Position numbers and translations under genes: made by a program
Notes under the pieces: generated by a model
Seen by the model: only the letters and a program-made list of their open reading frames with translations
Told to the model about the DNA's origin: nothing
Databases searched by the model: none
In this document: positions 12,549 to 29,983 of the stretch, piece by piece
Numbering within the stretch: position 1 is the stretch's first letter
Layout: each line of letters begins with the position of its first letter
NCBI GenBank assembly: GCA_046349935.1
Contig: JAXMBK010000012.1
Span: 77,556-141,555, forward strand
Direction of reading: 5' to 3'
Origin: Pirellulales bacterium
GTDB taxonomy: Bacteria > Planctomycetota > Planctomycetia > Pirellulales > Pirellulaceae
Length of the DNA: 64,000 bases

Positions 12549-13508
12549 TTACTCCGCCTTCGTCAGCTCAGCAGTCGGAGTCGGCCCCGACTGCTGCTGC
12601 TGGATGGCCGTCTCAGCAGTCGGCGTCGTTTCAAACTCGATCACCAGCGCCGATTCCTCTTGGGCCGACGTCGTCGTCGGCTCTTTGGATAGGGGCACTT
12701 CTCGCTTCGTCGAAGTCGAAACCGCGTCCACGCCCGTCGGTTGGCCGGCTTGCACCGGGATCTCCTCCAGGAATCGGCGGGCCGCCTCCTGGCTGGCCAG
12801 CGCTGGCGACGTTCCTCGCGATTCATCCGCCATCAGTTCCGCAACGCTGCGAACCGGATTGTCCCGCAACACGCGTTCGTTGACGTTGAACAAGGCGTCG
12901 ACCTGCGCGATGAGTTCCTCCCCGACCGCGGTCAACTCGCGCGACTCGAGCAGCTCACGCTGCGTCCCGATCGCCGCCAGCTGCGTTTCGGTCGCATTGA
13001 GTCGGACCACGATCTCCCGAACGCGCTGGTTCGACTCGTCCTGGATTCGCTGGAGCCGCTGGAGCGACTTCTCGAACCCCTCCGCCTCCGCCAACAACAG
13101 GCTCACTTGCGCCACCGCCTGCTCTTCGGTGTAAGCCGCGTTGCGGACGACGATCGGAAATGCGCTTTGCTGGCGAGCTTCCTGGAACCGCTGGCGAAAC
13201 TCCTCCGTCAGTTTCTGCGCTTGATCCCGCAGCACCAGTTGCTCGCGCACCTTGCCGCTCAGCTGATCGGCGTTTCCCACCAGCTCGAAACGGCACTTTT
13301 TCAGCAGAGCTGCTTCGGCCTTGAGCTTCTGCTCGACGTGCCGCGTGAAGCCCGCTGGATCAGCGCGTCGCGCTTCCTCGGTCCAACCGAACCAATCGCG
13401 GCCTTGCATGGCCACCGTGGTCCGCACAGCCGGCGAAACACGATAGGCGCCCGCAAGCAACGCCATGGCCACCACCGACACTCCCACATGTCCCCAAGAA
13501 ATCTTCAT
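12549..13508 (-). CDS. membrane-anchored coiled-coil hypothetical protein
   Basis: N-terminal TM/signal segment, long heptad-like charged region, Thr/Ser/Pro-rich C-terminus. Confidence 0.45.
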   Translation of the reverse strand: MKISWGHVGVSVVAMALLAGAYRVSPAVRTTVAMQGRDWFGWTEEARRADPAGFTRHVEQKLKAEAALLKKCRFELVGNADQLSGKVREQLVLRDQAQKLTEEFRQRFQEARQQSAFPIVVRNAAYTEEQAVAQVSLLLAEAEGFEKSLQRLQRIQDESNQRVREIVVRLNATETQLAAIGTQRELLESRELTAVGEELIAQVDALFNVNERVLRDNPVRSVAELMADESRGTSPALASQEAARRFLEEIPVQAGQPTGVDAVSTSTKREVPLSKEPTTTSAQEESALVIEFETTPTAETAIQQQQSGPTPTAELTKAE

Positions 13509-13695
13509 CGCCCTGCCCTTTCTAAAACGACGCTTCCCAGAATCAAGACTGGGGCATCGCTCGACGCCCCACTGTCATGGAGAGGCTTTCTCCGCGTCGA
13601 GATTGCGCGCCGCGGAAAGAATCGTCGGATTCGCGGTGGCGGAATGTGACCGTATCGACGGTCAACATGGCTGCGCCGCTTCCAAGAGGAGCAAC

Positions 13696-15138: not shown

Positions 15139-15195
15139 GCTCCTTTTCCAAACGTTGTTGACTCGTCAGTTTCCAAGTTGTTTTGCTTTACCAAG

Positions 15196-17094
15196 CTAGC
15201 CTGCCGCACCTTCGCGACGCTCGCTCGCCGGTTTCTGTTCCGTTTGCTCCGTTTGCTCGGTTCCCGGCTTGTCGCTGGGTTGCGGCTTCGGAGGTTTCTC
15301 TTTTGTCTGAGACGGCGTCTGCTTGGCGTCGGGCGACTGCTTCGGCTTCGCGGGCGCCGCTGCCCCCACATAGAACGCCACCTCATCCTGAGCGAACTCT
15401 CCCAGGTACGTCTTGGGGTCGAGTCGCCCAAACTCCTCCTGGGAGAGGCGTTCTTCACGCTGGTATTGCGCGACCAGCTGCTGAATTTGTTGAGCTTGCG
15501 ACGGCGGCCAGCGAAACTCTTGTCGTTGAAGCTGCTGTTGCTGCGGTTTCGGCGTCGCTTGCTGCTGCTGCGTCGCGTTCGACGCCAAACCGCTCAAGTG
15601 CAGCGGGCGCGAAGTCACCACCGCCTTGATCCGAGCGACTCCCGCCGGCCCTTCGACGCGAATTGCAAACTCGTCCTTGCCCCCGGGAATCGTGAACTTC
15701 GTCGACGCCTCCACCCGATTGGTCTGCCCCGGCTGCGGATACAGCAGCGCCAACTCGCCTTGTCCATTCAAATACAACAGGTACAGGTAGCCCGCCTTGC
15801 TGCTCGACCCGCGCACCTCCAGCGCCTCGCCGATCTGGTACTCGCCGCCATCGAACCGGTCCACCGTGATGTCCAAGGGGAAGGCGGACGTCTTGTTCGC
15901 CACCAGCCCCAATAGCTCCCAGGCGCTTAGCACCACTGGCTGCTCGGCCGGCGTGGGCGCGGGTCGAGGCGGTGTATTCGGAGTCGACGGGACGGTTCCC
16001 GGAACGGGAGGCGCTGGAGTCGGCGGCGGCGGATTGTCGGGATTGGCCGGCAGCATGGGCGTCGGCGGCATGGGCGTCGGAGGCGTGGGAGTCGGAGGCG
16101 CAGGAGTCGGAGGCGGCGCAGGGGGAGTCGGGGGAGCTGGAGTAGGCGTGGGCGGCGGAGGCGACGTTCCCGCGACCGGGCGACCGACGAACTGACGCAC
16201 CTGCGCATAGTCGATTTCGGGATTCTCCGCCCGTTGTACGGTTGGGAACCACGCAAAGTCGGGATGATCCTTGACGCTCGGCCCATGCCACTTACCCGAT
16301 CCGGCGACGATCTTGTTCCCTCGCAGCTCGAACGTGAACCAGTACGTCTGGCGGCGCACTTTGACCCCGACGTAATCCGGCGTCACGAAGTCGTCGGCGA
16401 ACCAGAGGGTCAATTGGGCCAGTTGCTGGTTGTTTCCTCCATGCGGAGCGTACGTGATCTTGTAAGCGTAAACCGGGAAATTCCAAACTTCCTCTCCCGC
16501 TTCGATATCCAACACCAGCGGCAGACGCTGTTGCTTGATATACAGCTTGAGCAGTTGCCACAGTTGGTCGGGCGCCAGGTCGCCGCGGTCCTCCGATCCG
16601 CGGCCGTCGCCGAAGCGATCGCCGTAGGAGTCGGCTTCATCGTAAGCGTGCGTCAGGGACAGCAACCCCTTCTGATCGCCCACGCCCAGCGGCAGTTGAC
16701 GCCCTCGCCCTTGAGCGACGCGGCTTTGCGCGGGCTCCGGCTCGCGAACCGCCGAGGCGGCCCAAGCATGGCAGTATCCGTGCCAGCGCGGCACCTCCGG
16801 TCCCGGCGGATGTTGCTTTCGTTCCCACGCAGCGGCCGCCTTGCCGGTCAGCTGGTCGTATTTGGCGAGCGGCCCGAGAATCTGGCCTTCGCGGTGCGGC
16901 CACCAATAACCGGACCAGGGCGTCCGATCCACTTGTCCTTGATCTTCGCCGGCGACGAGCGGCGACGCGGCCCCCCATGCGACCAGTCCCACTGCCAACC
17001 CCGCGGCGAGGAGCCGCCAGGTCGGCCGTTTCCCTTGAGTAATGCGTTGGTTCATGATTCTTGCTCTCTCCCTTAGACGGCGGACAGGCCGCAT
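15196..17094 (-). CDS. secreted protein with papain-fold-like Cys motif (GYCHAWA), Pro/Thr-rich linker and DUF4384-like domain
   Basis: Signal/TM segment. WSGYWWP...GYCHAWAASA resembles papain/transglutaminase-like active-site contexts. ~70-aa PT-rich linker. DUF4384-like block (GYLYLLYLNGQGELALLYPQ). Q-rich and K/P-rich tail. Confidence 0.55.
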   Translation of the reverse strand: MRPVRRLRERARIMNQRITQGKRPTWRLLAAGLAVGLVAWGAASPLVAGEDQGQVDRTPWSGYWWPHREGQILGPLAKYDQLTGKAAAAWERKQHPPGPEVPRWHGYCHAWAASAVREPEPAQSRVAQGRGRQLPLGVGDQKGLLSLTHAYDEADSYGDRFGDGRGSEDRGDLAPDQLWQLLKLYIKQQRLPLVLDIEAGEEVWNFPVYAYKITYAPHGGNNQQLAQLTLWFADDFVTPDYVGVKVRRQTYWFTFELRGNKIVAGSGKWHGPSVKDHPDFAWFPTVQRAENPEIDYAQVRQFVGRPVAGTSPPPPTPTPAPPTPPAPPPTPAPPTPTPPTPMPPTPMLPANPDNPPPPTPAPPVPGTVPSTPNTPPRPAPTPAEQPVVLSAWELLGLVANKTSAFPLDITVDRFDGGEYQIGEALEVRGSSSKAGYLYLLYLNGQGELALLYPQPGQTNRVEASTKFTIPGGKDEFAIRVEGPAGVARIKAVVTSRPLHLSGLASNATQQQQATPKPQQQQLQRQEFRWPPSQAQQIQQLVAQYQREERLSQEEFGRLDPKTYLGEFAQDEVAFYVGAAAPAKPKQSPDAKQTPSQTKEKPPKPQPSDKPGTEQTEQTEQKPASERREGAAG

Positions 17095-17098
17095 GAAA

Positions 17099-17932
17099 TT
17101 ACCGGTTCCCCGCAGGTTCGACCTTCACCAAGCGACTCCGCGTCACGCCGTTGTCGGAATAGGCCGGCCACGGCAAGTTGGCTTGCCACAACTGGCGGAC
17201 TTGCCGATTGCGTGTGTTCAACTGCACGTTGGCGATCGGCTCGCGGGTGAGGCTCTTGGAGAACTCTGCATGCAAGAGGCCCTTCACTTGGTCTTCTTGC
17301 GCGCCGCTCACCGATTGTTCAATCGCGTAAGAGAAACTCAGGTCGTCGAACGCCTTCACCCCGGCCGGCCCTGGAATGGCCTCGAACTCGAACGCCTTCG
17401 TCCCCTTGGTGTCGGCCTGCTGAAACACGGGCAGATCCACGGGCAGCAGGACGAGCATCGCCACGACGACGGGGGACGGCTGGCCGGTTGGAAACGCGTA
17501 ACTTTCCGTCATGGTGCGTACTTCGCCTGCAACCGTATGCTGCGTTTGCACCTGCCGTAACGCATAGGAATCGCGGTCGACCCACAGTCGAGTGACCGGC
17601 GCTTGCACCTGGGCGTCCAAGCAGTCGATCTGGACGCGAAAACAGGGCCGCTCCGCCACTTGCTCCTCGCCCTGCACCGTAAAGCGCCACGTGAGCGGCT
17701 TGGCGAGGGGAGCGTCCTTGTCGATCGTTTCCCGACGCTGAACTTGCTGCGTCTGGGTTTCAATCTCCCAGCGGTCGCCCACTTTCCAGCGGGGACGCAG
17801 CTTTTCCACGACCAGTTCCCCGTCACGGGCGGTCGCGGCGTTGGGCTGCTGCGCGAACGACCAGGCCCACCCGCCGGCGACGCTCGCCAGCAGCGTGCCG
17901 CAACACACGAGGTTCACAACGTGTTTTCTCAT
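17099..17932 (-). CDS. secreted hypothetical protein
   Basis: Signal peptide. Same strand as, and contiguous with, 15196..17094 and 13750..15138 (likely operon). Confidence 0.5.
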   Translation of the reverse strand: MRKHVVNLVCCGTLLASVAGGWAWSFAQQPNAATARDGELVVEKLRPRWKVGDRWEIETQTQQVQRRETIDKDAPLAKPLTWRFTVQGEEQVAERPCFRVQIDCLDAQVQAPVTRLWVDRDSYALRQVQTQHTVAGEVRTMTESYAFPTGQPSPVVVAMLVLLPVDLPVFQQADTKGTKAFEFEAIPGPAGVKAFDDLSFSYAIEQSVSGAQEDQVKGLLHAEFSKSLTREPIANVQLNTRNRQVRQLWQANLPWPAYSDNGVTRSRLVKVEPAGNR

Positions 17933-18621
17933 GATGATTTTCCTTCAAGAGATGTCGGTTTCCCGCTGACCAGCCCCACCAGCACGCAAAGCGCACCCCG
18001 CAGAGTGACTGGAATCTTAGGACGGCCCTCCGCAGGCCGCAACGCGGGTCTCACTCGGTGAGAGGGGCGGAGCGAGCCAGGATTGCGCTCGCCGCGCTAG
18101 ACGGTGAACGGGCCCGGCTCGGACTCGAGAATTCTTCGCAACGAGCGCAATTCTCGCCGCGACGTCGCCTCTTACGAGCGATGGCGAGGGAGGGGCCGCG
18201 GTCCTCGTCGTCTGGATAAACCATGCCGCGACCCATGCGCACCCCTTCGACGGAGAATTGAATCATGCAGCGCCGTCTTTTCCACGTCAGTCTCACGACT
18301 CTCGCCCTTGCGAGCGGCAGTCTCACCGCCGCCCTCCTGTTCGCGGGGCCCCGCGAATCTCCGCAGCAACAGCAGGAGTCGGCGGTTCAATTTGAGCAGC
18401 CCAGTTTGCTGCCCAACCAAATGGGCCAACAGCAGCAGCAGCAGCAAGAACATCCGGGCGTCCGGCGGCCGCGACAGCACTCTCAGCAAACGCGGCTTCC
18501 GCAACAACAACTGCCGAAACCCAAACTGCAGCCCCGGCATTTTCAACACCTGCAACATACGCCTATCATGCAAGGCAGTCGTCGCCGGTAACCTTCACCT
18601 CGCCATGGTCGCTGGCTTGCC

Positions 18622-21600
18622 TTGCAACCAGCGACCATGTTCCGACGCGGACCCGTGGTATGTCTGTCGATCGAAAGGAATCTCCCGATGCATCGTGTTG
18701 CCTTTCCAGTTCGCATCATGACCGTCGCCTTGTTGTTGTTGGGCGGCGTCTTGGGATGGAATGGCACCGCCCAGGCGGAAGGGCCGTCGACGCTCGACGT
18801 TCAGCAGGCGATCGGTCGATTCTTGGCCGATAAACGAGACTTTGGCGATAACACGAAGTGGGCCGCATTGCGTCGACGCGTGCGGCTGGAACCGGCGATG
18901 GCTTCGGTGATTGATGGACGAATTCACGTCGCCGCACCGATGCTTTGGAAACTTCCGACCGACGAGTCGTCTCAGGCGGTGCGGGAACTTGAGTTGTTAC
19001 TCGCGGCCGCGCTCGAAAAAGCGGCCGGCTCGGACCGACGATTTCGCGGTCGTCCGGCATTCGATTGGGTTCGAGAAAGTACGATTACGACCGCCCCCCC
19101 GGTGGCCATTCGCCGACTAACTGAGGTCAGCGAAGTCGAGGTAATCAGTGTGATCAACGACTATGTGGAGTCGCTGGACCGCGAGAATCGATGGGAAGCC
19201 GAGGGCCTTGGTCCACTTCAACGCAGCCTGCAGCTGCGCGGGCCAAACCTGGGCGTCAGCGAGGCGCGGTTTTGGGGCGACAAGTTGTCGCTCGGGTGGT
19301 CCGCCCTCGTGCGCGATGAGAGCGTTTGGCCATCCGTCACCCCCGCGGTGCGAGCGGCTGCCGCTCGCGCGGCCAGGGAACGTGCCAACGACCGCGACTG
19401 GGCGACGCTCAACAATTTCAATGATCAAGTTCGAACTACCGCGAACCGCCTCCGCGAACGGTACGCCCCGCTCCTTCAACCACTCGTCATCCGAGCGTTG
19501 ACGACGCACGTTGCCGCTCCAGCCTCCGCCCCGCTCCTCGAAGCGGCATCGCCAGCGAGTCTACAAGTCGACTTGTTTCTCGACATCCCCGCGGAATTGA
19601 GGAGGGTCGAGCGCGCAGGAGCAGTCGCAGCGGCGATGCCCCCTGGCGCCGGCAATCGGCGCATTGTGAACGCGGCCGGCAACGACTCAGCTGGCTACAC
19701 GTTTCGCTTTGTCAAAGCCGAGAAGTTGCGACGACTCTCGGCCGAGCAACAACCTGAGCTGACGCATGTGCGGTTAGAAGAAGCAGCCGACTCGGCATCC
19801 GTGAAGCGAAGAGAGTTTCAGCTCGACCTACAAGGATTCTCCGGCGGTACGCTCTCTGCCCTTGAGTTTTCCCCGGACGGCCGACGTCTCGCTGCCGCCG
19901 GCGACGTGCTCCGTATCTGGGACTTAGAGAAGGGCGTGTTGGAGCGAACGTTGCGAGCCGGCCAGATTACCGAGCGTGCAACGGGTTTTCGCGACATTGC
20001 CTATAGCCCAGATGGAAGACTCTTGTGCGCAGCCATGACCGGGACGAAACACCGGATCTGGGTCTACGAAACAGGCGATCTTTCGCGCGTGAAGTTCGCG
20101 TTGGACGGACATGACGAGGAGGTCGAACACCTGGCGTTCTCCAACGACGGCCGACACTTGGCGACCGCCGATATCCAAGGACGCGTCTTTCTTTGGGATT
20201 GGCCCAAGCGCCGCAAGATTTGGGGCTTCAAGTTCGAACACGCGATCAGCCACCTGAGCGTTTCGGAGTTTGAGGTATTGGCGATTGACAGGACGCTCGA
20301 TTTCTCGCGAATTCCGCTCGATCTGGATGCCCCTGGCGGTTGGTTCGGCGACGAAGACCCGCTCATTACGCTCATCAACAACTCGACTTACCCCGGCGCG
20401 AACGCCAAGCTATTCCCTCGTTCGGTGGCCGTTTCGAAAGACTCGCAGACTTGTTTGATCGGCGGGCGATCGGGCCGCGACGGCCAAAACGACAACTACC
20501 ACTGGTGCGCCGCCTTCACCATGGAACAATCGCGTCGCGGCGAACCGCACTCGTCACAGGCGGCGGTCGACCATCGATACACACTGCTGTGTTGCGCGCT
20601 TTCGACCGACGGACGGCTGTGTGCCAGCGGCGATGCGCTTGGCTTGGTTCAAGTATGGGACCGTAAGTCCAGCTTGATCAAACATCGCTTTGAACCGTTC
20701 GGAAAGGGAAACCTGAGCGTCGACTTCGGCGAGTCGCTTGCGGATTGGCGGCTGGGCCGTGATCGCTACATCGGAGAACAGTGGAAGTACAACCATTGGG
20801 CGCCGTTGCACCTTCAGTTCGACTTTGGCAAGCGTATTCTCTCTTCCGTCTCCGCAACCGAACCGCGCGATGCAAGAATCCGCGATCACCAACGTCTTTC
20901 CTACGACTACGATGCAAACCTCCTGAAAATCTACGAGAACGATCAGCTCCAAACTTCCGTCGACTTCAGCTCGCACGGCGCTAATTGGAAACTGTTCGGC
21001 TACGGGTTTTACCCCGTGCAGGGACTCGAAGCCGGCTATGGCGTCATCGTCTGCTCGGAAGGAGGCGGCGTCTTGTGCCTCGATCCGAAGACGCTCCGCC
21101 CTAAACGCATCTTCATCGGCCACAATAGCCGCGTCTGGAGCGCTGCTGTCTCGCGCGACGCGATGAATGGTAAGCGTCTCATCACTACCGGCTCGGACGG
21201 CGTCATCCATGTCTGGAGCCTCGAGCAGTTTCAGCCGACGTATAATTTGGCCGCGTTGGTCGACGAGGATCGCAAGATCACTTACATCTATCCCGGCACG
21301 TCGACGGCCGAACGGCTGGCGATTGGCGATCGCCTCGTGTCGATCGGCGGTCTGACTCCCATCGAATGGCTGGATAGCGACAAGGCCAAGTTAGCGCCCG
21401 ACGATCCAGTGACCGTGGTCATCGAGCGTAACGAACAAAACTACCGCGTGCCGGTCGTCTTGTCCGAAATGGGCGATCTCACGCGGCCTCTCGTCAGCGC
21501 CGTCCTTTCGGAAGATGGCAGCGAATGGGTGATCTGGACGCGGAGCGGCTACTTCGATTGCTCGCCGCAGGCCGGCCGACTGCTCGGCTGGTTGGAGAGT

Positions 21601-22956
21601 CGCGAGGGGGATCAGTCGGCGCAGTTCATCGACGGCGGCCAACTTCGCAAGCTCATGCACCGGCCCGACGTCGTCAACCTGACGCTCACCCTGGGCGACG
21701 AACAACTCGCGCTAAGGCAGGCCGATGCGCTGCGTAACCCAGACGCTCCGCCTCCACCCACGCCCGCTCCCGGCCACGGTAACGTCCCCGTGCCGCTGGC
21801 CTCTACCATCCCGAGCCCTCCCCGCGTGCGTTTGCTGCAACCGCTGGAAGGGTCGGCGACGGTGACCGCCGAAGAGACGGTGGAGGTGCGAGCGGTCGTG
21901 ACGGCGCCTGCCGGTCGGCGACCGGAGATCGTGTTTCGCGTGAACGAGTCGGTCGCCGCCTCGCGCAGCCTGGTCGTCGAGGGGATCGCCCCAGCGCTGC
22001 CGCCGCCGCCGGCTGGCTTCGAGCACTATTTCGCCGGTCAAACGATTTCGCTGCGCTTGGGCTCCAACGTCATCCAAGTGCTGGCGCGCCTGCCCGAAGT
22101 CCAGACTGCCGAGGGCACAAGTTTCGTCATCGTGGAGCGGCGTCCTACCACGGCAAACGGCACATCGACGAAACCCACGCTCCACTGGTGTTCGATCGGC
22201 GTCAACGATTACCAGGGAACGGGTTTGGCCAGCCTGCGATTCGCGCACAACGACGTCGATAAGGTGGCCGAGGCGCTGCTGAAGCGCAAGCAGAAGCCGC
22301 GTTTCCCCTATCAGGACGTGAAGGTGCATCGGCTGGTGGACCAGCAAGCAAGCAAGACGGGGATCGGCGAACTGTTCGACGCCCTCACGAACCCGAATTC
22401 GCCGGATCGCGTTCGTACGGGTGATACGGTGAGCATTCATATCAGCGCGCACGGCGGTAAAGTGGCGGGCACGGACGGCTACATGCTGGTTCCGCATGGC
22501 GGCGACCCTCGCAAGCCGCGCGCAACCTGCGTCTTGTGGAGCGAGTTTGTGGAGTTGGCTCATGCGTTGGGCCAAAAGAATGTCCGCCTACTGTTGTTCG
22601 TGGATACCTGTCGAGCCGGCGGACTGGGCGACATCGAGAGTGGAGCGGCACGGGTCTTCACGAGCGAATTGAGCGGACTGGTCTTCACGGCCAGCGGGGC
22701 CAAGCAGAATGCGTTGGAATCGCCGACTTGGGAGCATGGTGCATTTTCCTTGGCGTTACGCGAGGCGATTGAAGGGCAGCGGCTGTCCGACGTCGAATGG
22801 GCCAGCGGCTTACAGCCCGACCAGGATCGAAACGGCGTCGTCGAAGTACGCGAGCTCGAAGCGTTCCTCCACCGGCGAGTCAAATCGCTCACCATGGACC
22901 AACAAGCCCCCGATTACGCTTGTCCCCGCATGGGGCTCGATCCGGTGTTGTTCTAG
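18622..22956 (+). CDS. large secreted multidomain protein: WD40 repeats, PDZ-like domain, C-terminal caspase-like (C14) domain
   Basis: Signal peptide at the internal Met (MHRVAFPVRIMTVALLLLGG). WD40-like repeats (VWD, HVWS, LWDW). PDZ-like block (IGDRLVSIGGLTPIEW). C-terminal caspase dyad contexts ISAHGG and LLFVDTCRAGG. Confidence 0.75.
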   Translation: MQPATMFRRGPVVCLSIERNLPMHRVAFPVRIMTVALLLLGGVLGWNGTAQAEGPSTLDVQQAIGRFLADKRDFGDNTKWAALRRRVRLEPAMASVIDGRIHVAAPMLWKLPTDESSQAVRELELLLAAALEKAAGSDRRFRGRPAFDWVRESTITTAPPVAIRRLTEVSEVEVISVINDYVESLDRENRWEAEGLGPLQRSLQLRGPNLGVSEARFWGDKLSLGWSALVRDESVWPSVTPAVRAAAARAARERANDRDWATLNNFNDQVRTTANRLRERYAPLLQPLVIRALTTHVAAPASAPLLEAASPASLQVDLFLDIPAELRRVERAGAVAAAMPPGAGNRRIVNAAGNDSAGYTFRFVKAEKLRRLSAEQQPELTHVRLEEAADSASVKRREFQLDLQGFSGGTLSALEFSPDGRRLAAAGDVLRIWDLEKGVLERTLRAGQITERATGFRDIAYSPDGRLLCAAMTGTKHRIWVYETGDLSRVKFALDGHDEEVEHLAFSNDGRHLATADIQGRVFLWDWPKRRKIWGFKFEHAISHLSVSEFEVLAIDRTLDFSRIPLDLDAPGGWFGDEDPLITLINNSTYPGANAKLFPRSVAVSKDSQTCLIGGRSGRDGQNDNYHWCAAFTMEQSRRGEPHSSQAAVDHRYTLLCCALSTDGRLCASGDALGLVQVWDRKSSLIKHRFEPFGKGNLSVDFGESLADWRLGRDRYIGEQWKYNHWAPLHLQFDFGKRILSSVSATEPRDARIRDHQRLSYDYDANLLKIYENDQLQTSVDFSSHGANWKLFGYGFYPVQGLEAGYGVIVCSEGGGVLCLDPKTLRPKRIFIGHNSRVWSAAVSRDAMNGKRLITTGSDGVIHVWSLEQFQPTYNLAALVDEDRKITYIYPGTSTAERLAIGDRLVSIGGLTPIEWLDSDKAKLAPDDPVTVVIERNEQNYRVPVVLSEMGDLTRPLVSAVLSEDGSEWVIWTRSGYFDCSPQAGRLLGWLESREGDQSAQFIDGGQLRKLMHRPDVVNLTLTLGDEQLALRQADALRNPDAPPPPTPAPGHGNVPVPLASTIPSPPRVRLLQPLEGSATVTAEETVEVRAVVTAPAGRRPEIVFRVNESVAASRSLVVEGIAPALPPPPAGFEHYFAGQTISLRLGSNVIQVLARLPEVQTAEGTSFVIVERRPTTANGTSTKPTLHWCSIGVNDYQGTGLASLRFAHNDVDKVAEALLKRKQKPRFPYQDVKVHRLVDQQASKTGIGELFDALTNPNSPDRVRTGDTVSIHISAHGGKVAGTDGYMLVPHGGDPRKPRATCVLWSEFVELAHALGQKNVRLLLFVDTCRAGGLGDIESGAARVFTSELSGLVFTASGAKQNALESPTWEHGAFSLALREAIEGQRLSDVEWASGLQPDQDRNGVVEVRELEAFLHRRVKSLTMDQQAPDYACPRMGLDPVLF

Positions 22957-23252
22957 GCGTTGAACCGCGGAGCGGTCCACAACGAACCGCAGGACAGGCT
23001 TTCAGCCTGTCTCTGGTCGCCGGAGCGTCGTTCCCTCACGGAATCGTAGATGCCCCAAGCGCCTCGCGGGCGGGCCATCCAAGAACGACCGCATGACGGC
23101 TCTCACAAGAAAAACCGCGTCGAGCGTTCGATCAGGGCATCTCCCCAACCTACCAGCACCACGCGGCTCAACGATCGTTTGCCCGCACGGCCGTTCTCTG
23201 CCGCGAGGGACCGGAAAGCAGTCGGTTCCGTCCTGGGGATTCTCTGCTCCCC

Positions 23253-23391
23253 GGATGGAGCTGCGGCAACACGGAAGCCCAGGTTGTTGTTCCGGTTCGT
23301 CGGGTCGTTCCTGTTGCGGTTCGACGACCGGCAGTTCCTGGGACTGTTGTTCCAGCTCCCGCCCCGGATGACCCGGTTCGAGCCTTGTGAC
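23253..23391 (-). repeat. DGR template repeat (TR)
   Basis: ~139 bp, 16 nt downstream of the RT stop. In the target frame it encodes SQGSNRVIRGGSWNNSPRNCRSSNRNRNDPTNRNNNLGFRVAAAPS with 11 AAC (Asn) codons. The two VRs differ from it almost only at its adenines. Confidence 0.85.
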
Positions 23392-23406
23392 TGCTCACCA
23401 GCCTAT

Positions 23407-24396
23407 CTATAGCGTGCGACGACGAAAGCGCCAACTCGCGACGCCGGCTGCTTGCGTGAATGCGACAAGCGCCGTCGCACGCTGCTGTAGTTCAAGGCCG
23501 CTGATTTCACCGCGTTCGTGCTGCCGTTCGAGGCTGGTAATCTTGCGTTGGTAGCGTACGCGGCTGCGACGATTCAGCGTCGCTCCCCACGCGTACACGC
23601 GGCAACCCAGGAAGTCGACGCCCAGATGGCTTCGATTCACGAATGCGTTCGGCTTAAGTTCCAATCCCAGTTCGCCCAGGAAATCTTCGTGCGCCGACTC
23701 CTTAAGTTCTCGGAGCTGATCGCGCGAATCCGACCATAGCAGCATATCGTCCATGTAGCGCACGTAGCCTGGGACGCGCCAGCGCTCCTTGACCCAGCGA
23801 TCGAACCAGCCAAGGTAGAAGTTCGCAAAGTGCTGCGAGGTCAGGCTGCCAATCGGCAATCCTCGTCCTAACTTCCCGCGAAAGCCGGCAATCACCCTTG
23901 CAAACAGCGACAGAAGACGAGCATCTTTGAACAGTCGCGTTAAGCGTGCGTTCAACGGTTGATGCGGGATGGAGTCGAAATAGCGACGAATATCGAGCTT
24001 CAGATACCAGCCGTAACGACGAGAGAATTGCTGCGCACGCAACACGGCGGCAACCCGACCGCGTTCGCGTCGGCAAGCAAAAGTATCGTCGATCAGCCAA
24101 CGATCGAAATAGGGTTCGCAGACATTCATGATCGCATGATGAAGCACCCGTTCCCGAAAGCAAGGCGCGGTGATGATGCGCTCTTTCGGATCGTGAATCA
24201 CGAACTGGCGAAACTCACCGATCGCCAGCCGATCCGTCAAGAGGTCCGTTTGCAGCGCATCGAGATTCCGCTCCAAACAGGCTTGGAACGCACGCGCCTC
24301 GGCACGGTCGCGTTTTCCCCGTAACGCCCTGGCGACCGCCAGTCGCAGGTTATCGCGGTCGGCGATGCTGTCAAACAGATTCGCCACCCGTTTCAT
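23407..24396 (-). CDS. DGR-type reverse transcriptase
   Basis: RT motifs ITAPCFRERVLHHAI, YLKLDIRRYFDSI, LPIGSLTSQHFANFYL (the [LIV]GxxxSQ hallmark of DGR RTs) and YMDD. Start taken at the internal ATG 24396; the long ORF begins at 24480. Confidence 0.85.
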   Translation of the reverse strand: MKRVANLFDSIADRDNLRLAVARALRGKRDRAEARAFQACLERNLDALQTDLLTDRLAIGEFRQFVIHDPKERIITAPCFRERVLHHAIMNVCEPYFDRWLIDDTFACRRERGRVAAVLRAQQFSRRYGWYLKLDIRRYFDSIPHQPLNARLTRLFKDARLLSLFARVIAGFRGKLGRGLPIGSLTSQHFANFYLGWFDRWVKERWRVPGYVRYMDDMLLWSDSRDQLRELKESAHEDFLGELGLELKPNAFVNRSHLGVDFLGCRVYAWGATLNRRSRVRYQRKITSLERQHERGEISGLELQQRATALVAFTQAAGVASWRFRRRTL

Positions 24397-24922
24397 GCAC
24401 GTTCGCCTCCAGCAACTGATCCAGCAACTCCAGGAAGCGCGGCCCATACTTTTCGCTGCGTGCGTCTCCGACTCCAGCAATCGCTGTGAGGGCGGACTTC
24501 GTTCGCACGCGATTCTGCACCATCTGGGCCAATTGCTCGTTGGTGAAGACCGTGTAGATGGGAACCGCCTCCGCCTGCGAAATCTCGCGGCGTAGATCCC
24601 TTAAGCGAGCGAACACCGCGAAGTCCGCCTCGTTCAGGATCTGTTTGTAGTCCTTGCCCTTGCTCTTCCCACTCGAGACGGCGGAGGAACCGTCTCCTGC
24701 CCGGCTCAGTTCCACGTAATCAATGCAGAACGACCAGAACGAGTCGGAACCTTGCTCCACAAAGCGCCGATAAACCGCCAACACGCGATGGCTGCGCAGA
24801 AACCCATTGAGCGCGACTTCGGCCGCCTCCAAATCGCGCACCGGCACCACGAAGAACTTAAACGGCATCCGAACTCCTCGATGATGGGCCGCTCCGCCTT
24901 CCACTGCGGCGTGCCGAGGCAC
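24371..24922 (-). CDS. DGR accessory protein with HRDC-like domain
   Basis: C-terminal block VFTNEQLAQMVQNRVRTKSALTAIAGVGDARSEKYGPRFLELL resembles an HRDC domain. Lies between the target gene and the RT and overlaps the RT start. Confidence 0.6.
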   Translation of the reverse strand: MPRHAAVEGGAAHHRGVRMPFKFFVVPVRDLEAAEVALNGFLRSHRVLAVYRRFVEQGSDSFWSFCIDYVELSRAGDGSSAVSSGKSKGKDYKQILNEADFAVFARLRDLRREISQAEAVPIYTVFTNEQLAQMVQNRVRTKSALTAIAGVGDARSEKYGPRFLELLDQLLEANVHETGGESV

Positions 24923-24991
24923 GGGCTCCGCCCTCTCCGGCCCCGAACGCCTCCGCTCCAGGCTCCGCTCACTCTCTGACCGGCTCCGCCG

Positions 24992-27529
24992 TTACTCACT
25001 GGACGGAACTGCGGCAACACGGAAGCCCAGGCTGCTGCTCCGGCCCGCCGGGTCGACCCCGCTGCGGCTCGACGACCGGCAGCTCCCGGGACTGCTGCCC
25101 CAGCTCCCGCCCCGGAGGACCCGGCCCGAGCCTCGAGAAGGACCGGTCGGGTCCGCCGCTGGCGACTTGCGATAATAGTCACTGTCGTACCAATCACTGC
25201 ACCACTCTAACACGTTCCCTTGCATATCGTACAAACCCCAACCGCTCGGTTTAAACTCGCCCACGGGACTCGTGAACGACCACCGATCATCAAACGAAAA
25301 GCTGGGATATTTGTTGTAATCGAGGCTCGGGTACTTTCGCTCGAAAGAGGCATCTTGAAAGTTGCCGAAACCTTCCAGGCTACGCGGGCGATCGCCGGTG
25401 GGAAAACGCGTCGTGATTCCCGCACGGCAAGCGTATTCCCATTCGGCTTCTCGGGGCAGACGATAGCCGATTCCCGAGACTTCCGAGACCGTGTCGCCGT
25501 CAATCCGGTAACACTCGGTTTTCCCTTCTTGCCGACTCAGCCAATTGCAGTAGCGCACCGCGTCGTTCCAACTCACGTTGACCACCGGATGATCCTCCGA
25601 CTGCGGCCAACCCGTGTTCCGCCAATTGAATTTCCGATCTTGCTTCGAGAATTTTGTCTCTGTGTCGTAACCCCACCCACCCTGCTGGTCCCGTTCGGCA
25701 TCTGTTTCGTACCCAGTCCCCTCCACGAACGACGCGAACTGCCCCTTCGTCACCTCGTAAACGCCCAGCCACAACGGACGCGAGATCTGCACCCGGTGCG
25801 CCGGCGATTCATCCGAGATATCAATTCCAGCCAGCGCGATCCCAGCAGCTTCCAGGTTTGCCGCCGTCTCGTCGCTCCCCATGACAAATTCCCCTGCCGG
25901 AATGTACGCCAACTTCATCCCCTTGGGACTTGTCACGACGTCGCCCGCTTTCGGTTTTGGACGAGGCAGGTGTAGCTGCCACGACGACGAGGTCGGAAAA
26001 CCATCCAGCGACCAGATCTTCTCGCGTGATCCTTGCGAGACGCGTGCGTAGTACCGTCCCGACGACGTCGGCAGCACCGCGCTCGCGAGCTCCAGGCTCG
26101 CTTGCCCACCGGCGCTCGTCGTGGTCCCCCCCAGCGTCTTCCACTCCGTGCTTCCCGTTTCCTGCCACTGCAGCTCCACTCGTACTCCCGACGCCAACGG
26201 CGAGTCCTCCGCGGAACCGTCGCGAACGAGGAACGTCGCCCGAACCATTCGCGGTGGGAGCCGGCCGCGGCGGTCGAGTTCACCGCGCAAGTAGGGCACA
26301 AACACATCGCCGGGGACCTTGCCGCTCACGAAACCTTGCGTCGCGGTCAACAGCACGCGATCGGGTTCCTGCCGCAAGTCGAGCTTGGCCAGCGTTTCCG
26401 CCAACTGCGACCGCAGTTCTCCGCTAAAGGCGGTCGTGGTGGGATGTTTGCGTACGGTGGCGGCCAGCGTCGCTAGGTCCCCCGCCTTCCTCGCCAGCGG
26501 CAGTTCGCGAGAACTCATGGCGCCCGCCGAAAACGGCGTCTGAGCCGGCAGTTTTGCTTCCGCCGACCAGCTTGCGAGATACTTCGAGACAAAGTCTTCG
26601 ACGGCCCTCAACCGCACGAAGTTCTGCCCATCCGCCTCGGCCCCGCCCCGCAGCGCTTCCAGCAGCGCGTAGGTGAACACCCCGTGCCCTACGTTGCCCA
26701 GAGCCGGGTTTTCGTAGCTCAACTGCTTCGGACTGCAGGACGCCAGCTTGTACTGACCGGTTGCCGATACAAATGCCTGCTTGAACGCCGCGTCCATCCC
26801 CTGCTCCGCGGTCGGCGGCCCGACCGACTTCGCGGCGATTCGCTCTTGGCAAGCGTCCACGAACAGCAAGCGATGTCCCGCCTGTGACTGTTCCATGTCC
26901 TCTTCGACCGTATCCAGCGCCACCGCCGTCAGCTTCAAGCGGGTTTTCAATCCGTCGCTCGGCATCACGTACGGTCGGCCCTCGGCCATGAACCCGTGTG
27001 AACTCACCGAACAAACCAACAAATCCGCAGCCTTCGTACCGATGCCGCGCACGGTTTCCAATTGCGAGAGGATCTCGTTGCGATCCGCCGTGCTGACGAC
27101 GGCCTTGGCCGCCTTCAGTTGTTCCAAGTGTCGCTGGACCGATGGCGCCGTCGGCTCGCCCGACAGCAACAAGATGCAGTTCTCGGCCGGAATGAGCTTG
27201 AGTTCGAACACGAAGAGATACGCTTGCTCGACCGCGTCGTGAACGGCGAACTGCAGCCGGTTCAGTTTCTTGTCCTTCGTGAATTCGTTGACGCCGATAA
27301 ACAGCCCCGCGTTGCCCGACGGCGCGGCCCCTGCGACAGGCTCAAATACGGTCCCTTCGACCACCAGACTGCGGCTTGGCCTCGCCGACGGGCCCTCTTG
27401 CCCGCTGGAGAGCGCGATGCACGTGAAGACCAACGCTGCCGTAGCCAAGACGCGATGGGAAGCACGCAGGACATCAGTGGTGGCGCCGATCATGATCGAT
27501 CTGTTCCCTGGAGCAGTGCGGGTTGCCAA
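24992..27529 (-). CDS. secreted caspase-like (C14) protein with C-terminal FGE-sulfatase/C-type-lectin-fold domain; adjacent DGR target
   Basis: Signal peptide. Paralog of 8305..10356 (VSSHGF and LLFVDACQ dyad contexts). Extra central Ig/beta-rich region. C-terminal FGE motifs (HRVQISRP, WGLYDMQGNVLEWCSDWY, RGGSWGS). The 3' end carries VR2. Confidence 0.85.
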   Translation of the reverse strand: MATRTAPGNRSIMIGATTDVLRASHRVLATAALVFTCIALSSGQEGPSARPSRSLVVEGTVFEPVAGAAPSGNAGLFIGVNEFTKDKKLNRLQFAVHDAVEQAYLFVFELKLIPAENCILLLSGEPTAPSVQRHLEQLKAAKAVVSTADRNEILSQLETVRGIGTKAADLLVCSVSSHGFMAEGRPYVMPSDGLKTRLKLTAVALDTVEEDMEQSQAGHRLLFVDACQERIAAKSVGPPTAEQGMDAAFKQAFVSATGQYKLASCSPKQLSYENPALGNVGHGVFTYALLEALRGGAEADGQNFVRLRAVEDFVSKYLASWSAEAKLPAQTPFSAGAMSSRELPLARKAGDLATLAATVRKHPTTTAFSGELRSQLAETLAKLDLRQEPDRVLLTATQGFVSGKVPGDVFVPYLRGELDRRGRLPPRMVRATFLVRDGSAEDSPLASGVRVELQWQETGSTEWKTLGGTTTSAGGQASLELASAVLPTSSGRYYARVSQGSREKIWSLDGFPTSSSWQLHLPRPKPKAGDVVTSPKGMKLAYIPAGEFVMGSDETAANLEAAGIALAGIDISDESPAHRVQISRPLWLGVYEVTKGQFASFVEGTGYETDAERDQQGGWGYDTETKFSKQDRKFNWRNTGWPQSEDHPVVNVSWNDAVRYCNWLSRQEGKTECYRIDGDTVSEVSGIGYRLPREAEWEYACRAGITTRFPTGDRPRSLEGFGNFQDASFERKYPSLDYNKYPSFSFDDRWSFTSPVGEFKPSGWGLYDMQGNVLEWCSDWYDSDYYRKSPAADPTGPSRGSGRVLRGGSWGSSPGSCRSSSRSGVDPAGRSSSLGFRVAAVPSSE
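25001..25138 (-). repeat. DGR variable repeat VR2
   Basis: ~19 of ~104 aligned core positions differ from TR. Every one of them is a TR adenine on the coding strand. Confidence 0.85.
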
Positions 27530-27557
27530 TGGATCGCCGCGTTTACGCGTTAACGCG

Positions 27558-28766
27558 TCAGTTTTTCGGCGATTCCTGGATGTGACGTTCGATTTGATCG
27601 CGGAGCGTGGGATCGTCGACCAGCGGCAAGGCCTGCCGCCAGTAGCGACGCGCGTCGTCCGGTCGTTGCAACGCTTCGCTGGCGAGCGCCGCGTTGATCG
27701 CCGCCGTTGCGGATTGCGGACGTTCCCGCATGACGGCCTGAAAGGCGTCGAGGGCCGCCGTGTAGTCCTGCCGTTCGTAGCGTGCCAACCCTAAGCCCAA
27801 CTGAGCGTCGACGCTGTCCGGCTGACGGTCGAGCGCCTCGCTGAACTGGGATTCGGCCGCCGCGATCGCGCCTGCCTTCAACAGGAACTGTCCGAAATTC
27901 ACCCTTAACAAGAGACTATCGGGATACTTCTGCAGCGCCTGCTCCCATTGCTTCTGTTGTTGCTCAAAGGCCGCGTCGAACGTCGGAAAACCCTTTTGGA
28001 AAGCTTGGCCGTTCAGGTCGTAGCCATAGTCGAGCAAGCCGCCTGATCGAGCCAGCGAAACGATGGCCGGATCGGCGCGCCGCGCTTGCAGGTCTGCGTT
28101 GACTACTTGGTCGGTCGCGACGCCGAGCCGGTCGACGCGTGCTGCGATCTGGCTCACTTGCGTGAAATCGCCTTTCTCCAACCGCTCCACCGCCGCCTTC
28201 TCAGCCGCCTCTCGGGCGACTGAAAGGGCATCGGTACGCAGTGGCTCCGCGACATCGCGACTTATCAGTCCCTCGACGCGCTCCAGCGCCGCCAAGTGGT
28301 CGCCACGTGCGAATTCGCCCTTGGCTAGCGCCAACTGCCCCTCGGCCGAATTGGAACGACCTCCGAAGTAGAGCACCGCCGCCACGAGAGTGGCCGCGAC
28401 CGCCAGCGACGCGATCGCCAGGAATGGTCGTCGCGATCCTCCGAGCGGGCCTTCGAACGCACCGCCACCCGCGCCGGGAGGCGAGCTTGATTGTGCCGAT
28501 GCCGCCATGGAGTCGGCAGTGGATTCCTCAATCAAAGGGAGAACGAGCGTGCCACTCTTCACCATTTGGGCGACGAGCGTCGCACAGCGAGTGCACGCGG
28601 CCAAATGGTCGGTGATCTGGCGGGTTTCGGCCGAATCGAGATAGCCTGCCGACCAACGTTCCAACAACGCATCGTCGTCCGCGACATGCGGTCCCGGCGC
28701 AATGCGGTCGGCCGCTGCAGCACCCAGAAATTGGCGAAAGGCTTCGTGCGAATGCGAAGAGGTCAT
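27558..28766 (-). CDS. anti-sigma factor (zinc-finger HxxxCxxC, single TM, periplasmic TPR repeats)
   Basis: DHLAACTRC zinc-binding motif. TM segment FLAIASLAVAATLVAAVLYF. C-terminal TPR-like repeats. ATGA overlap with the upstream sigma gene. Confidence 0.7.
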   Translation of the reverse strand: MTSSHSHEAFRQFLGAAAADRIAPGPHVADDDALLERWSAGYLDSAETRQITDHLAACTRCATLVAQMVKSGTLVLPLIEESTADSMAASAQSSSPPGAGGGAFEGPLGGSRRPFLAIASLAVAATLVAAVLYFGGRSNSAEGQLALAKGEFARGDHLAALERVEGLISRDVAEPLRTDALSVAREAAEKAAVERLEKGDFTQVSQIAARVDRLGVATDQVVNADLQARRADPAIVSLARSGGLLDYGYDLNGQAFQKGFPTFDAAFEQQQKQWEQALQKYPDSLLLRVNFGQFLLKAGAIAAAESQFSEALDRQPDSVDAQLGLGLARYERQDYTAALDAFQAVMRERPQSATAAINAALASEALQRPDDARRYWRQALPLVDDPTLRDQIERHIQESPKN

Positions 28767-29983
28767 GGTCGTCCTCCTGGCGAACGCTTGCCGGCCGACC
28801 GCGCCCCTCGCTCCTCCCCGGCACCGGCGGCATGCCGCGGTGCATGCTCCTTGGCCAGCAAGAGCGTCGTGAGGTCCAGGTCGTCGCCCAACCGCAGTAA
28901 GTGCTTCAGACAGCCGCTCAGCGAGTTGCCTTCGTGCTTGATGCGCGCGAGTAAGAGGTCGCGCAGCTCCGACAGCCCCCGATCGCGTCGTCGCGTGGCC
29001 GTGCCGGGGGCTACCCCCATAATCCTGGCTGCCTCTTGGTTCTCCAAATCGTCGACGAAGTGATGGAGCAGGGCCTGACGCGGCTCGGGCTCCAACAAAT
29101 CGAGCGAATCGCGCAAGGCGAGACGCACTTTGTCGCGACAGTCTCGCTCTGTCGCGGAAAGGTCGGCGGCGACTGCTTTGGCATCCGCAACGCCCGGAAA
29201 TCCCTCAACGGCCGTCGCCTCGCGGCGCTCGCGTTCGGCGTAATGCATGATTTCGCGAACGAACATCCGACCCAACCACGATTTAAGGCCTGAATGCCCT
29301 TGGTAGTTCGCCAGCTTGCCCCCATGCTTTTCGCGCACCACCAGGGTTGCCTTGAGGTCGTCCCACCAATCCAGTTTCTGGGCGTAGCGAGGCGACGTCC
29401 TGCGGGCGACCGCGACGGCAAAGTCTTCAAAGCACTCCAAGAAGATCCGAGTGGCCCGAGGGTCGCCGCGGAGGACGCCGTCTGCCCAGACCAGATCGTG
29501 GATGACATCGCCGCCCAACGTGCCGCTGCCGAGCCCCCTTCCGTTTCGTATTCGCTGCGCCACCCACATGCCGTCGACCTTTCCGCCATCCGTGACCTTG
29601 CATTCCGCCATCCAATGGTACTTCCAACACTCCCAGAGCTTGCGAGCCAGTTCGTAGTAAGCCTCGCCCATCTCGGCGATAACCGGCTGGTTGAGCAGTT
29701 CCTCACCGCGTTCGGCGATCCACTGTTCTAACCGTTTTGCCAGAACGCCCTTAGCCGATTTCCAAAGGGAGGCGGGCGACGTTGTTTTCGCCTGTGAATC
29801 CGAGAAAGGCTGAGTCAGCAGCCATTCGCGGTCCGGTTCAAACAACGTTTCCCAACCGCTCTGAAGCGGCCGATCGTTATTGGAGAGAGGCATGTCGGGC
29901 ATCGGAATTGCGCGAGGAAACGATCCGAGCGTCCAGATCCAGCCCGCCATTGTAGGGTGGACTCTCAGGGGTACAAGAGACAC
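28763..29983 (-). CDS. sigma-70 family (ECF-like, N- and C-terminally extended) RNA polymerase sigma factor
   Basis: Region-4 HTH (ENQEAARIMGVAPGTATRRRDRGLSELR) and a region-2-like segment. Translationally coupled to the anti-sigma gene. Confidence 0.6.
   Translation of the reverse strand: MSLVPLRVHPTMAGWIWTLGSFPRAIPMPDMPLSNNDRPLQSGWETLFEPDREWLLTQPFSDSQAKTTSPASLWKSAKGVLAKRLEQWIAERGEELLNQPVIAEMGEAYYELARKLWECWKYHWMAECKVTDGGKVDGMWVAQRIRNGRGLGSGTLGGDVIHDLVWADGVLRGDPRATRIFLECFEDFAVAVARRTSPRYAQKLDWWDDLKATLVVREKHGGKLANYQGHSGLKSWLGRMFVREIMHYAERERREATAVEGFPGVADAKAVAADLSATERDCRDKVRLALRDSLDLLEPEPRQALLHHFVDDLENQEAARIMGVAPGTATRRRDRGLSELRDLLLARIKHEGNSLSGCLKHLLRLGDDLDLTTLLLAKEHAPRHAAGAGEERGARSAGKRSPGGRP

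Follow-up and report, generated by a model that had tools for sequence, protein, structure and literature searches.

Little is known about how cellular diversity-generating retroelements (DGRs) are regulated, or about when they mutate their targets. A stretch of 64,000 nucleotides from a Pirellulales metagenome-assembled genome (assembly GCA_046349935.1, contig JAXMBK010000012.1, positions 77,556 to 141,555), called the window below, provides a concrete and testable case. In it, a gene pair for an extracytoplasmic function (ECF)-like sigma factor and a putative membrane anti-sigma factor stands directly upstream of a DGR target gene. Is the hypervariable protein gated by an envelope or redox signal sensed by the pair, as an earlier note on this DNA had proposed? 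The gene layout, which recurs in distant planctomycete relatives, makes it plausible that production of the hypervariable receptor, and perhaps mutagenesis itself, is wired to an envelope signal. Coordinates are window positions and are collected in Table 1; related loci are designated by L or P numbers.

The sigma/anti-sigma pair

The sigma factor is annotated at NCBI as a sigma-70 family protein of 376 aa starting at 29893 (MFO0905760.1, PGAP annotation). It is about twice as long as a minimal ECF sigma factor: a conserved helical N-terminal extension of ~140 aa, with a WxCWxxHW motif, precedes a putative sigma-2 domain and sigma-4, and a short C-terminal extension (CLKHLL) follows them. Sigma-4 is recognised by Pfam Sigma70_r4_2 (35.9 bits for a cut-off of 25.7, residues 288-339 of the 406-aa open reading frame, ORF), and residues 180-343 narrowly pass TIGR02937, the sigma70-ECF model (44.1 bits for a cut-off of 42.9). 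Compared to PDB sequences with phmmer, the protein matches SigH and SigE of M. tuberculosis best (E ~3e-4), in alignments that begin in late sigma-2. An AlphaFold (AF2) model, of mean pLDDT 69 and mostly above 85 over the N-terminal 180 residues, was compared to the PDB with Foldseek; the top matches were weak (E of at least 0.012), and all of them were ECF sigma/anti-sigma complexes. The ECF-like sigma factor of the earlier note thus stands on two family-model passes, the SigH and SigE matches and the ECF-only structural matches; these agree with one another, but make a narrow base for an ECF-type core. No match to sigma-3 or sigma-1.1 was found in family-model scans of the protein, and its N-terminal extension had no structural match. 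A PhyR-like pseudo-sigma factor was considered and rejected (22.9 bits for a cut-off of 27, and no receiver domain).

The gene had been given GTG 29983 as its start. This start was rejected, because a conserved −35/−10 pair, described below, falls within the extension that it would add, and because homologs start at the methionines of an MPDMPLS sequence, here ATG 29902 or ATG 29893, the latter being also the NCBI choice. A profile search of 1.84 billion representatives placed 230 of them in the sigma family at E ≤ 1e-10; among the matches listed, the best are mostly ~330-350 aa long and align from the N-terminal extension onwards. Invariant in a 22-member alignment are the WxCWxxHW motif and two cysteines, one preceding sigma-4 and one within the C-terminal extension (DCLxxL), and the protein looks like a distinct ECF-like family. 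Three cysteines and one histidine (C92, H96, C255 and C331 in 379-aa numbering) are invariant across the wider family, and may form a metal or disulfide centre tying the extensions to the core.

The second gene of the pair encodes a 402-aa protein, named 'tetratricopeptide repeat protein' at NCBI (MFO0905759.1). The HxxxCxxC motif, the single transmembrane helix and the tetratricopeptide repeats (TPRs) that had been reported in it are all present. The motif reads HLAACTRC at residues 54-61 (H54, C58, C61) of the N-terminal domain. One conserved hydrophobic helix, FLAIASLAVAATLVAAVLYFGG, covers residues ~124-146 and is preceded by RR. The domain that follows, predicted to be periplasmic, contains a DYGY motif and TPRs at ~270-385 (Pfam TPR_16, E = 2.5e-11). 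In nine anti-sigma homologs, distant ones included, H27, H54, C58 and C61 are invariant, and the helix and the TPR region are kept together with these residues down to ~27-38% identity. The zinc label fared less well: the motif is conserved, but Pfam zf-HC2 reached 18.3 bits, under its cut-off of 22.2, so that the zinc-finger assignment relies on the conserved motif and not on a family match. The ChrR anti-sigma model TIGR02451 scored 20 bits for a cut-off of 124.5.

The sigma stop (28763) and the anti-sigma start (28766) overlap on the minus strand as ccATGAcc, an overlap already pointed out in the earlier note and evident from both the ORFs and the sequence. All 12 homologous loci examined have the ATGA junction, with a GGAGG-type Shine-Dalgarno sequence 6-10 nt upstream, and the overlap is therefore a family trait rather than a product of chance. 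In the window, GGAGG stands 7 nt upstream of the anti-sigma start; with such a strong ribosome-binding site of its own, the anti-sigma should be independent of sigma translation. We conclude from these sequence features that the pair is a real ECF-like sigma factor with a class-I-type membrane anti-sigma factor, its zinc-type domain and its binding to the sigma factor being predicted.

The DGR row and related loci

Behind the pair lies the target gene. Its caspase-like Peptidase_C14 domain carries the His/Cys dyad, and its FGE-sulfatase domain, of C-type-lectin fold (residues 542-839 of the 845-residue ORF, E = 1.8e-58), bears the variable repeat (VR). The VR and the template repeat (TR) are 144 nt long and 83% identical. 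As 22 of their 25 mismatches fall at TR adenines, the DGR call is sound; it includes the TR/VR pair, a reverse transcriptase (RT), an accessory gene and a VR in a lectin/FGE-fold C-terminus. The RT is 41% identical to that of L017, in an alignment that begins at residue 29. Sigma, anti-sigma, target, HRDC gene, RT and TR form a tight co-directional row on the minus strand, from 29.98 to 23.25 kb.

The target was said to start 29 bp downstream of the anti-sigma gene on the same strand. The strand is right; the distance is 28 nt if TTG 27529 is the start and 64 nt for ATG 27493, which is the start in PGAP and in the gene calls of L011/L012. Within this gap (27494..27557) there is no copy of the bipartite element described below, as searched with a position weight matrix, no sigma-70-type promoter and no terminator, and the RNA fold is not significant (z-score −0.96). 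The generic scan for sigma-70 promoters and terminators covered 22900-31000, where the only two minus-strand terminator-like matches are weak and lie inside the RT and sigma genes. With neither an element copy nor a promoter or terminator belonging to it alone, the target is probably co-transcribed with the pair, and a single transcript from 29.9 kb to the TR is the simplest reading of the layout.

Three other sequences at the gap were considered. The small non-conserved palindrome ACGCGTTAACGCGT at 27558..27545 (−) was rejected as a terminator or attenuator: it is not conserved in L010 or L011, and the fold z-scores are −0.96 and +0.44. A sigma-54 promoter, TGGCAAC-N-CTGC at 27512-27529 (−), was rejected for a GG-to-GC spacing one base over consensus. 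At the 3′ end of the anti-sigma gene, a SigR/SigH-like GGAAT-N17-GTT at 27576..27552 (−) is kept in L011/L012; in L010, whose target is truncated, it is not. The site may be a promoter for the target inside the anti-sigma gene, or a coincidence of the coding sequence.

A second VR-like copy of the TR was seen at 8305-8452 (−), at the 3′ end of a C14+FGE paralog (10356..8305). It is 148 nt long and 78% identical to the TR; 19 of its 33 mismatches are at TR adenines, which make up ~24% of TR bases, and the other 14 are non-A changes. Two readings fit this copy: a second target, remote at ~15 kb, or one that has decayed. In a kinase-FGE gene, the segment 37503-37604 was examined as a third VR and set aside as paralogy, its mismatches not being clearly A-biased (12/31).

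The order found in the window recurs. In L011/L012, whose sigma factor is 87% identical, the target homolog starts 64 nt after the anti-sigma gene and is 92% identical over the N-terminal residues reached by the contigs (416 and 299 aa). L017/L018 are far more distant, with identities to the window of 29% for sigma, 41% for RT and 43% for the DUF4384+C14 protein. They nevertheless show, on a single strand, sigma, anti-sigma (4-nt overlap, HLADCPRC), C14+FGE, HRDC, RT and TR, with 22 of the 23 TR/VR mismatches of L017 at A; homologs of the 277-aa protein, the TGase_elicitor+DUF4384 and the DUF4384+C14 proteins of the window follow their DGR. L020, also distant, shows sigma, anti-sigma and C14+FGE as far as its contig end. 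Because the order recurs in L011/L012, L020 and L017/L018, the last with a complete DGR at 29% sigma identity, we conclude from this comparison of loci that the adjacency of the pair and the DGR target is a real genomic association, not chance.

The DGR is not an obligatory partner of the pair, judging from four loci that have the pair without an adjacent DGR. In L001 a C14 gene comes next after the pair, with two C14/FGE genes upstream. The P0160 contig has the pair and the TGase/DUF4384/C14 set and no RT, and L021 the pair with DUF4384+C14 and two other proteases. In L019 there is no caspase gene within 10 kb of the pair. As far as these loci tell, the constant theme is a pair set among secreted caspase-like genes, and a DGR-diversified member behind the pair is recurrent, not universal. 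Pattern scans for further loci gave one locus each in the genome and metagenome collections, and none in the viral collection.

Some of these loci have features of their own just after the pair. A perfect hairpin of ~31 bp (−68.7 kcal/mol, z = −7.7) follows the anti-sigma stop in L001 (12387-12460). L017 and L020 have shorter hairpins at this position, and the L017 hairpin sequence, of a repetitive extragenic palindrome (REP)- or terminator-like kind, is repeated after DUF4384+C14. In L010 (Ga0075471_10011858, 2950-4250; anti-sigma 85% identical), ~40 target codons with ATG changed to ATA follow the anti-sigma gene; then come an IS256-type transposase fragment and the opening 86 codons of a WD40-caspase homolog, which lie on the opposite strand. 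The whole DGR cassette is missing there, by a deletion mediated by the insertion sequence (IS) or by an assembly join.

Promoter-like elements and the proposed circuit

A search for an ECF-type promoter upstream of 29983 and of 27529, recommended in the earlier note, gave no GGAAC..CGT-type site at either place. Upstream of the sigma gene, two other elements were found. The first is P1, a promoter-like element of the housekeeping (sigma-70) type. It aligns across six sigma loci, and also precedes a separate C14+FGE gene in L001. The generic scan missed it because its TTGTAC scores only 3/6; it was seen by cross-locus alignment alone. P1 would imply basal transcription of the whole row, independent of the sigma factor.

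The second is a bipartite element of consensus GCGCAATYY-N14-CCTCT, whose copy at the sigma gene lies 33-38 nt beyond P1. The window holds four exact copies, for 0.06 expected from shuffles, and eight when one mismatch is allowed, for 1.46 expected. All are oriented strictly towards a gene that starts 55-135 nt away, and the spacing of the two blocks is rigid. The copy at 18145 has an orthologous counterpart in L010, at 4714(−). The 277-aa gene preceded by the 18061 copy heads a minus-strand row with TGase_elicitor+DUF4384 (17094..15196) and DUF4384+caspase (15138..13750). The 13581..13608 copy comes ~80 nt after a strong intrinsic terminator, and no other promoter candidate was found there. 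This terminator, at 13690-13725 (−) directly after the DUF4384+C14 gene, is GGCGGGCCGAC-aaac-GTCGGTCCGCC followed by T7.

Copies also occur in related loci. The homolog of the 277-aa gene in L017 is preceded by the element (6835), and the stand-alone C14+FGE gene of L001 has P1 and the element arranged as at the sigma gene. Back-to-back pairs, as close as 16 nt, are found in divergent regions of L003/L015, L010 and L001. At the 5′ end of the sigma gene itself, the element is present in the window lineage and in L019, and as a variant in L020. Its two blocks with their rigid spacing, its strict orientation and its closely set back-to-back pairs favour a promoter, plausibly the cognate promoter of this sigma factor. 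Promoters known from other sigma factors are GGAAT-N18-GTT for SigR/SigH and GGAACTT-N16-TCT for RpoE, which the element resembles loosely.

Between the −10 box and the element, the sigma leader has a conserved AC(G/A)CTCGGAT block and a T-rich TTTCC run (29921-29930). The block is at the same place in L001, L010, L013 and L016, and no conserved RNA structure explains it: RNAalifold gave a consensus of −1.4 kcal/mol without convincing covariation for the leader, and an Rfam search of it returned one chance miRNA match and no RNA family.

Table 1. Coordinates of the features discussed, in window positions
Feature	Position	Strand	Details
P1, housekeeping (sigma-70)-type promoter-like element	29949..29976	−	−35 TTGTAC 29976..29971; −10 TACAAT 29954..29949; 16-nt spacer
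Bipartite element GCGCAATTC-N14-CCTCT	29886..29913	−	overlaps ATG 29902 and ATG 29893; from upstream-region alignment of six sigma loci
ECF-like sigma factor gene	28763..29902	−	379 aa from ATG 29902; Pfam, TIGR02937, PDB and AF2/Foldseek matches
Anti-sigma factor gene	27558..28766	−	402 aa; motif, transmembrane helix and TPR read from sequence, Pfam and homolog alignment
Gap, anti-sigma to target	27494..27557	−	64 nt; 28 nt if start is TTG 27529
DGR target gene	24992..27493	−	833 aa, NCBI MFO0905758.1 ('SUMF1/EgtB/PvdO family'); signal peptide, Peptidase_C14, FGE-sulfatase
VR	24995..25138	−	target 3′ end; stops 3 nt before stop codon
DGR accessory gene, HRDC domain (not Avd)	24371..24922	−	Pfam HRDC, E = 9.9e-17; likely start ATG 24868; same position in L017
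DGR reverse transcriptase	23407..24396	−	Pfam RVT_1, E = 3.4e-17; likely start ATG 24396, M29 of ORF 24480..23407
TR	23247..23390	−	downstream of RT
Element copy	18145..18172	+	93 nt upstream of Q-rich ORF 18265..18591, then WD40+caspase gene 18622..22956
Element copy	18061..18088	−	back-to-back with 18145 copy; 129 nt upstream of secreted 277-aa protein gene 17932..17099
Element copy	13581..13608	−	73 nt upstream of 319-aa membrane/secreted coiled-coil gene 13508..12549
Weak element copy (GCGCAATTT...TCC)	10423..10450	−	~70 nt upstream of paralogous C14+FGE gene 10356..8305

The genes behind these copies belong to an island of signalling/conflict-type genes (8305-22956 and 34780-42611), almost all of them with signal peptides. 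It includes C14+FGE, C14+PDZ, DUF4384+C14, TGase_elicitor+DUF4384 and WD40+C14 (1444 aa) proteins and, further along, an FHA protein and two Ser/Thr kinases with a double zinc ribbon and a C-terminal FGE-sulfatase domain. Signal peptides are carried by the target and by the other caspase-like proteins of the island. The conserved genes at 17932..13750 (−) are split from the DGR by a unit of opposite orientation, inserted between them, which holds the Q-rich ORF and the WD40-caspase gene; the proteins of the row and of this unit all have signal peptides. The Q-rich ORF (18265-18591, +) encodes a small secreted protein of ~108 aa, conserved in L010, with no family match.

The model that we favour, with moderate confidence, is as follows. 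The anti-sigma factor, with its zinc-type domain inside the cell and its TPRs in the periplasm, would hold the sigma factor at the membrane. An extracytoplasmic cue would act on the TPR domain and free the sigma factor, most likely by proteolysis as in other membrane anti-sigma factors. The freed sigma factor would then drive a local regulon whose members carry the bipartite element: three to four secreted-protein units of the island, and the sigma operon itself through the copy at its 5′ end. This last copy would raise transcription of the anti-sigma, target and DGR genes, which would ride on the sigma transcript, P1 giving basal expression of a row transcribed as one unit. In this scheme we infer co-transcription, the use of the element by this very sigma factor and the nature of the signal.

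Several observations weigh against the model. With P1, expression of the target may be constitutive. At the sigma gene the element extends over the start codon, and no conserved start codon was found further downstream, so that it cannot be a productive promoter for the full-length sigma factor; given the strong ribosome-binding site of the anti-sigma gene, transcripts beginning at the element could still express the anti-sigma, target and DGR functions. The sigma genes of L017 and L021 lack the element. A gap of 160-440 nt with hairpins separates the anti-sigma gene from the downstream gene in L017, L020 and L001; there the downstream gene may have its own promoter, and operon continuity may differ by lineage. 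Co-transcription is something that we infer from spacing alone. As for the sigma protein, it clears the ECF model by a small margin, and Pfam Sigma70_r2 (sigma-2) was not detected in it.

Other readings were weighed on the same evidence. The element could be bound by a different regulator, as DNA (an operator downstream of P1) or as RNA (a linear site where translation starts), and this regulator would co-repress the sigma and secreted-protein genes, a possibility that we hold tentatively. It covers the sigma start-codon region in three lineages, it lies ~27-55 nt downstream of the predicted P1 transcript start, and at the paralog the 10450 copy directly follows a TTGCAA-N16-TAAAAA promoter-like site. 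A mere binding site accounts poorly, however, for two blocks spaced like −35 and −10, for a gene-ward orientation with back-to-back pairs down to 16 nt that leave no room for separate promoters, and for the copy that follows a terminator with no other promoter candidate; nor was there a conserved RNA fold or an Rfam match in the leader. Stress promoters inside the long ORF, giving shorter isoforms, are reported for sigE of M. tuberculosis, and the long isoform of sigma-R, which is made from an earlier start codon, is related to this. It is also conceivable, though unlikely, that there is no gating at all, the pair controlling only the other element units while target and cassette are read through from P1, or from some promoter within the anti-sigma gene that escaped recognition, whatever the signal. 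The conserved TTGTAC-N16-TACAAT upstream of sigma, the lack of an element copy at the target, the absence of a DGR beside the pair in several lineages and the GGAAT-N17-GTT kept in L011/L012, which might be an internal promoter, all fit such a reading. The order sigma, anti-sigma, C14+FGE, kept with the DGR at 29% sigma identity, is however hard to explain without a functional link, and the element at the sigma 5′ end is upstream of the target on the same strand.

Two further readings concern the input. The secreted lectin-caspase may be the sensor: a ligand bound to its variable lectin domain would activate the caspase, which would make the site-1 cut in the anti-sigma TPR domain, release the sigma factor and induce the regulon. 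Co-location would then come from a partnership of the proteins, compatible with co-transcription in a feed-forward loop. Signal peptides place the target and the island caspases in the same compartment as the TPR domain, and the pair is tied to Peptidase_C14 genes even without a DGR (L001, P0160 contig, L003/L015, L021). Protease-released sigma factors are known from defence systems (CalpL/CalpT/CalpS, Craspase/CASP-sigma, PCaspase/PCc-sigma), and an ECF sigma factor, together with a TPR protein, has been described beside EACC2-caspase genes (Kaur et al. 2021, eLife). Against this stand the hypothetical nature of both cleavage and interaction, with no cleavage site identified, the cytoplasmic location of the known protease-sigma examples and the pair of L019, without a caspase gene within 10 kb. 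We consider it improbable that the lectin-caspase is the sensor, and keep the more general statement that it could be an input cleaving the anti-sigma, not only an output. Carried to its end, the idea gives an extracytoplasmic antigen-receptor-like circuit, in which the lectin-caspase binds a foreign or self ligand and cleaves the anti-sigma TPR domain, and the sigma factor raises caspase-like effectors together with receptor, RT, accessory protein and TR RNA. We regard it as a long shot; if true, receptor expression and targeted hypermutation would be triggered by a signal, a bacterial analogue of stimulus-induced receptor diversification.

A redox switch, with thiol oxidation sensed by the anti-sigma HxxxCxxC zinc site or by the sigma Cys/His cluster as in RsrA/SigR, appears very doubtful. 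It would agree with the invariance of H27, H54, C58 and C61 in the anti-sigma factor, with that of C, H, C and C in the N-extension, linker and C-extension of the sigma family, and with the best PDB sequence matches being to SigH, whose partner is a zinc-binding anti-sigma (ZAS) protein. The ZAS motif, however, is structural in many non-redox anti-sigma factors (RsiW, ChrR, RslA), the transmembrane helix and the conserved periplasmic domain of ~250 aa point to an extracytoplasmic input, and the putative regulon genes encode secreted caspase-like proteins, not thiol-stress enzymes. RsiW is controlled by proteolysis, whereas RsrA is a soluble redox sensor; a ZAS motif on a membrane anti-sigma factor with a large periplasmic domain is closer to the former. 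Of the envelope-or-redox gating first proposed, the envelope half is thus plausible, as part of the model that we favour, and the redox half has no specific support.

Known systems

Each part of the locus is of a known kind, be it the ECF sigma/anti-sigma pair, the ZAS domain or a DGR acting on the C-type lectin (CLec)/FGE domain of caspase proteins, as known from multicellular or complex bacteria. The pair is most readily compared to SigW/RsiW of B. subtilis, RpoE/RseA of E. coli and AlgU/MucA of P. aeruginosa. As in these, the sigma factor would have a two-domain sigma-2/sigma-4 core, the sigma and anti-sigma genes overlap (co-transcription being predicted here), and a cytoplasmic anti-sigma domain is joined by one transmembrane helix to a sensor domain outside the cytoplasm. 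RsiW has a matching HxxxCxxC motif, and membrane ZAS anti-sigma/ECF sigma complexes of this group head the list of structures similar to the sigma model. In contrast to them, the sigma factor has ~140-aa N-terminal and additional C-terminal extensions with invariant Cys/His; the sensor is a TPR array; a DGR and secreted caspase-like genes lie downstream; and the upstream promoter is of the housekeeping type, with a candidate cognate element unlike GGAAC..CGT.

SigR/RsrA, SigH/RshA (ECF12) and M. tuberculosis SigE also have a ZAS anti-sigma partner, and SigH and SigE are the best PDB matches. RsrA and RshA are soluble redox sensors, whereas the anti-sigma factor here is membrane-bound with a periplasmic domain. 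The sigE gene of M. tuberculosis reportedly has stress promoters inside a long ORF, giving shorter isoforms. SigR has alternative promoters of different types, and its isoforms differ at the N-terminus. Two promoter types at the sigma gene would likewise be found here, with P1 and the candidate element. Unlike in SigR, SigH and SigE, the candidate regulated promoter is downstream of the first start codon, and no conserved alternative start was found.

In multicellular bacteria, DGRs are known to diversify C-type-lectin/FGE-fold domains of multidomain signalling and conflict proteins (Vallota-Eastman 2020; Kaur 2020, 2021; Dore 2024). The DGR of the window resembles them in its adenine-specific changes, in the VR at an FGE-sulfatase/CLec C-terminus, in the fusion to a caspase-type peptidase and in the many paralogous caspase, kinase, WD40 and TPR genes nearby. 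Those systems centre on cytoplasmic STAND, MoxR-vWA or EAD modules, whereas signal peptides are found here, and the cassette of the window differs from theirs in standing directly behind an ECF sigma/anti-sigma pair. We did not find the combination of a sigma/anti-sigma pair with a DGR described: in the DGR surveys and conflict-system literature checked, the terms were absent or confined to reference lists, a coverage that is incomplete and amounts to absence of evidence.

The EACC2-caspase system shares with the window the presence, in one neighbourhood, of a caspase-domain protein whose C-terminal domains vary, a sigma factor of the ECF type and a protein with TPRs. There, the TPR protein is DUF1822 and the EACC2 component is defining. 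Neither DUF1822 nor EACC2 is among the Pfam/NCBIfam matches here, in scans that included no search aimed at EACC components, and NF047832 (caspase_w_EACC1) scored 57.4 bits for a cut-off of 140.

Protease-released sigma factors of type III CRISPR systems (CalpL/CalpT/CalpS, Craspase Csx30/CASP-sigma, SAVED-CHAT/PCaspase/PCc-sigma) offer another parallel: a protease, caspase-like or of another kind, has its gene linked to those of an ECF-like sigma factor and its inhibitor, and transcription is reprogrammed there after sensing. These systems are cytoplasmic and triggered by cyclic oligoadenylate or target RNA, whereas the proteases here are secreted, the anti-sigma factor is transmembrane and the cleavage is hypothesised.

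Set beside these systems, the locus is one where a signal could control the transcription of both the receptor and the mutagenesis machinery. What it defines for work on ECF factors is a planctomycetal sigma family that has an N-terminal extension, invariant Cys/His, a ZAS-transmembrane-TPR partner, an unusual candidate promoter and a putative regulon made up of secreted caspase-like proteins. Among bacterial caspase/lectin 'conflict' systems, it suggests a version that works outside the cytoplasm and is coupled to transcription.

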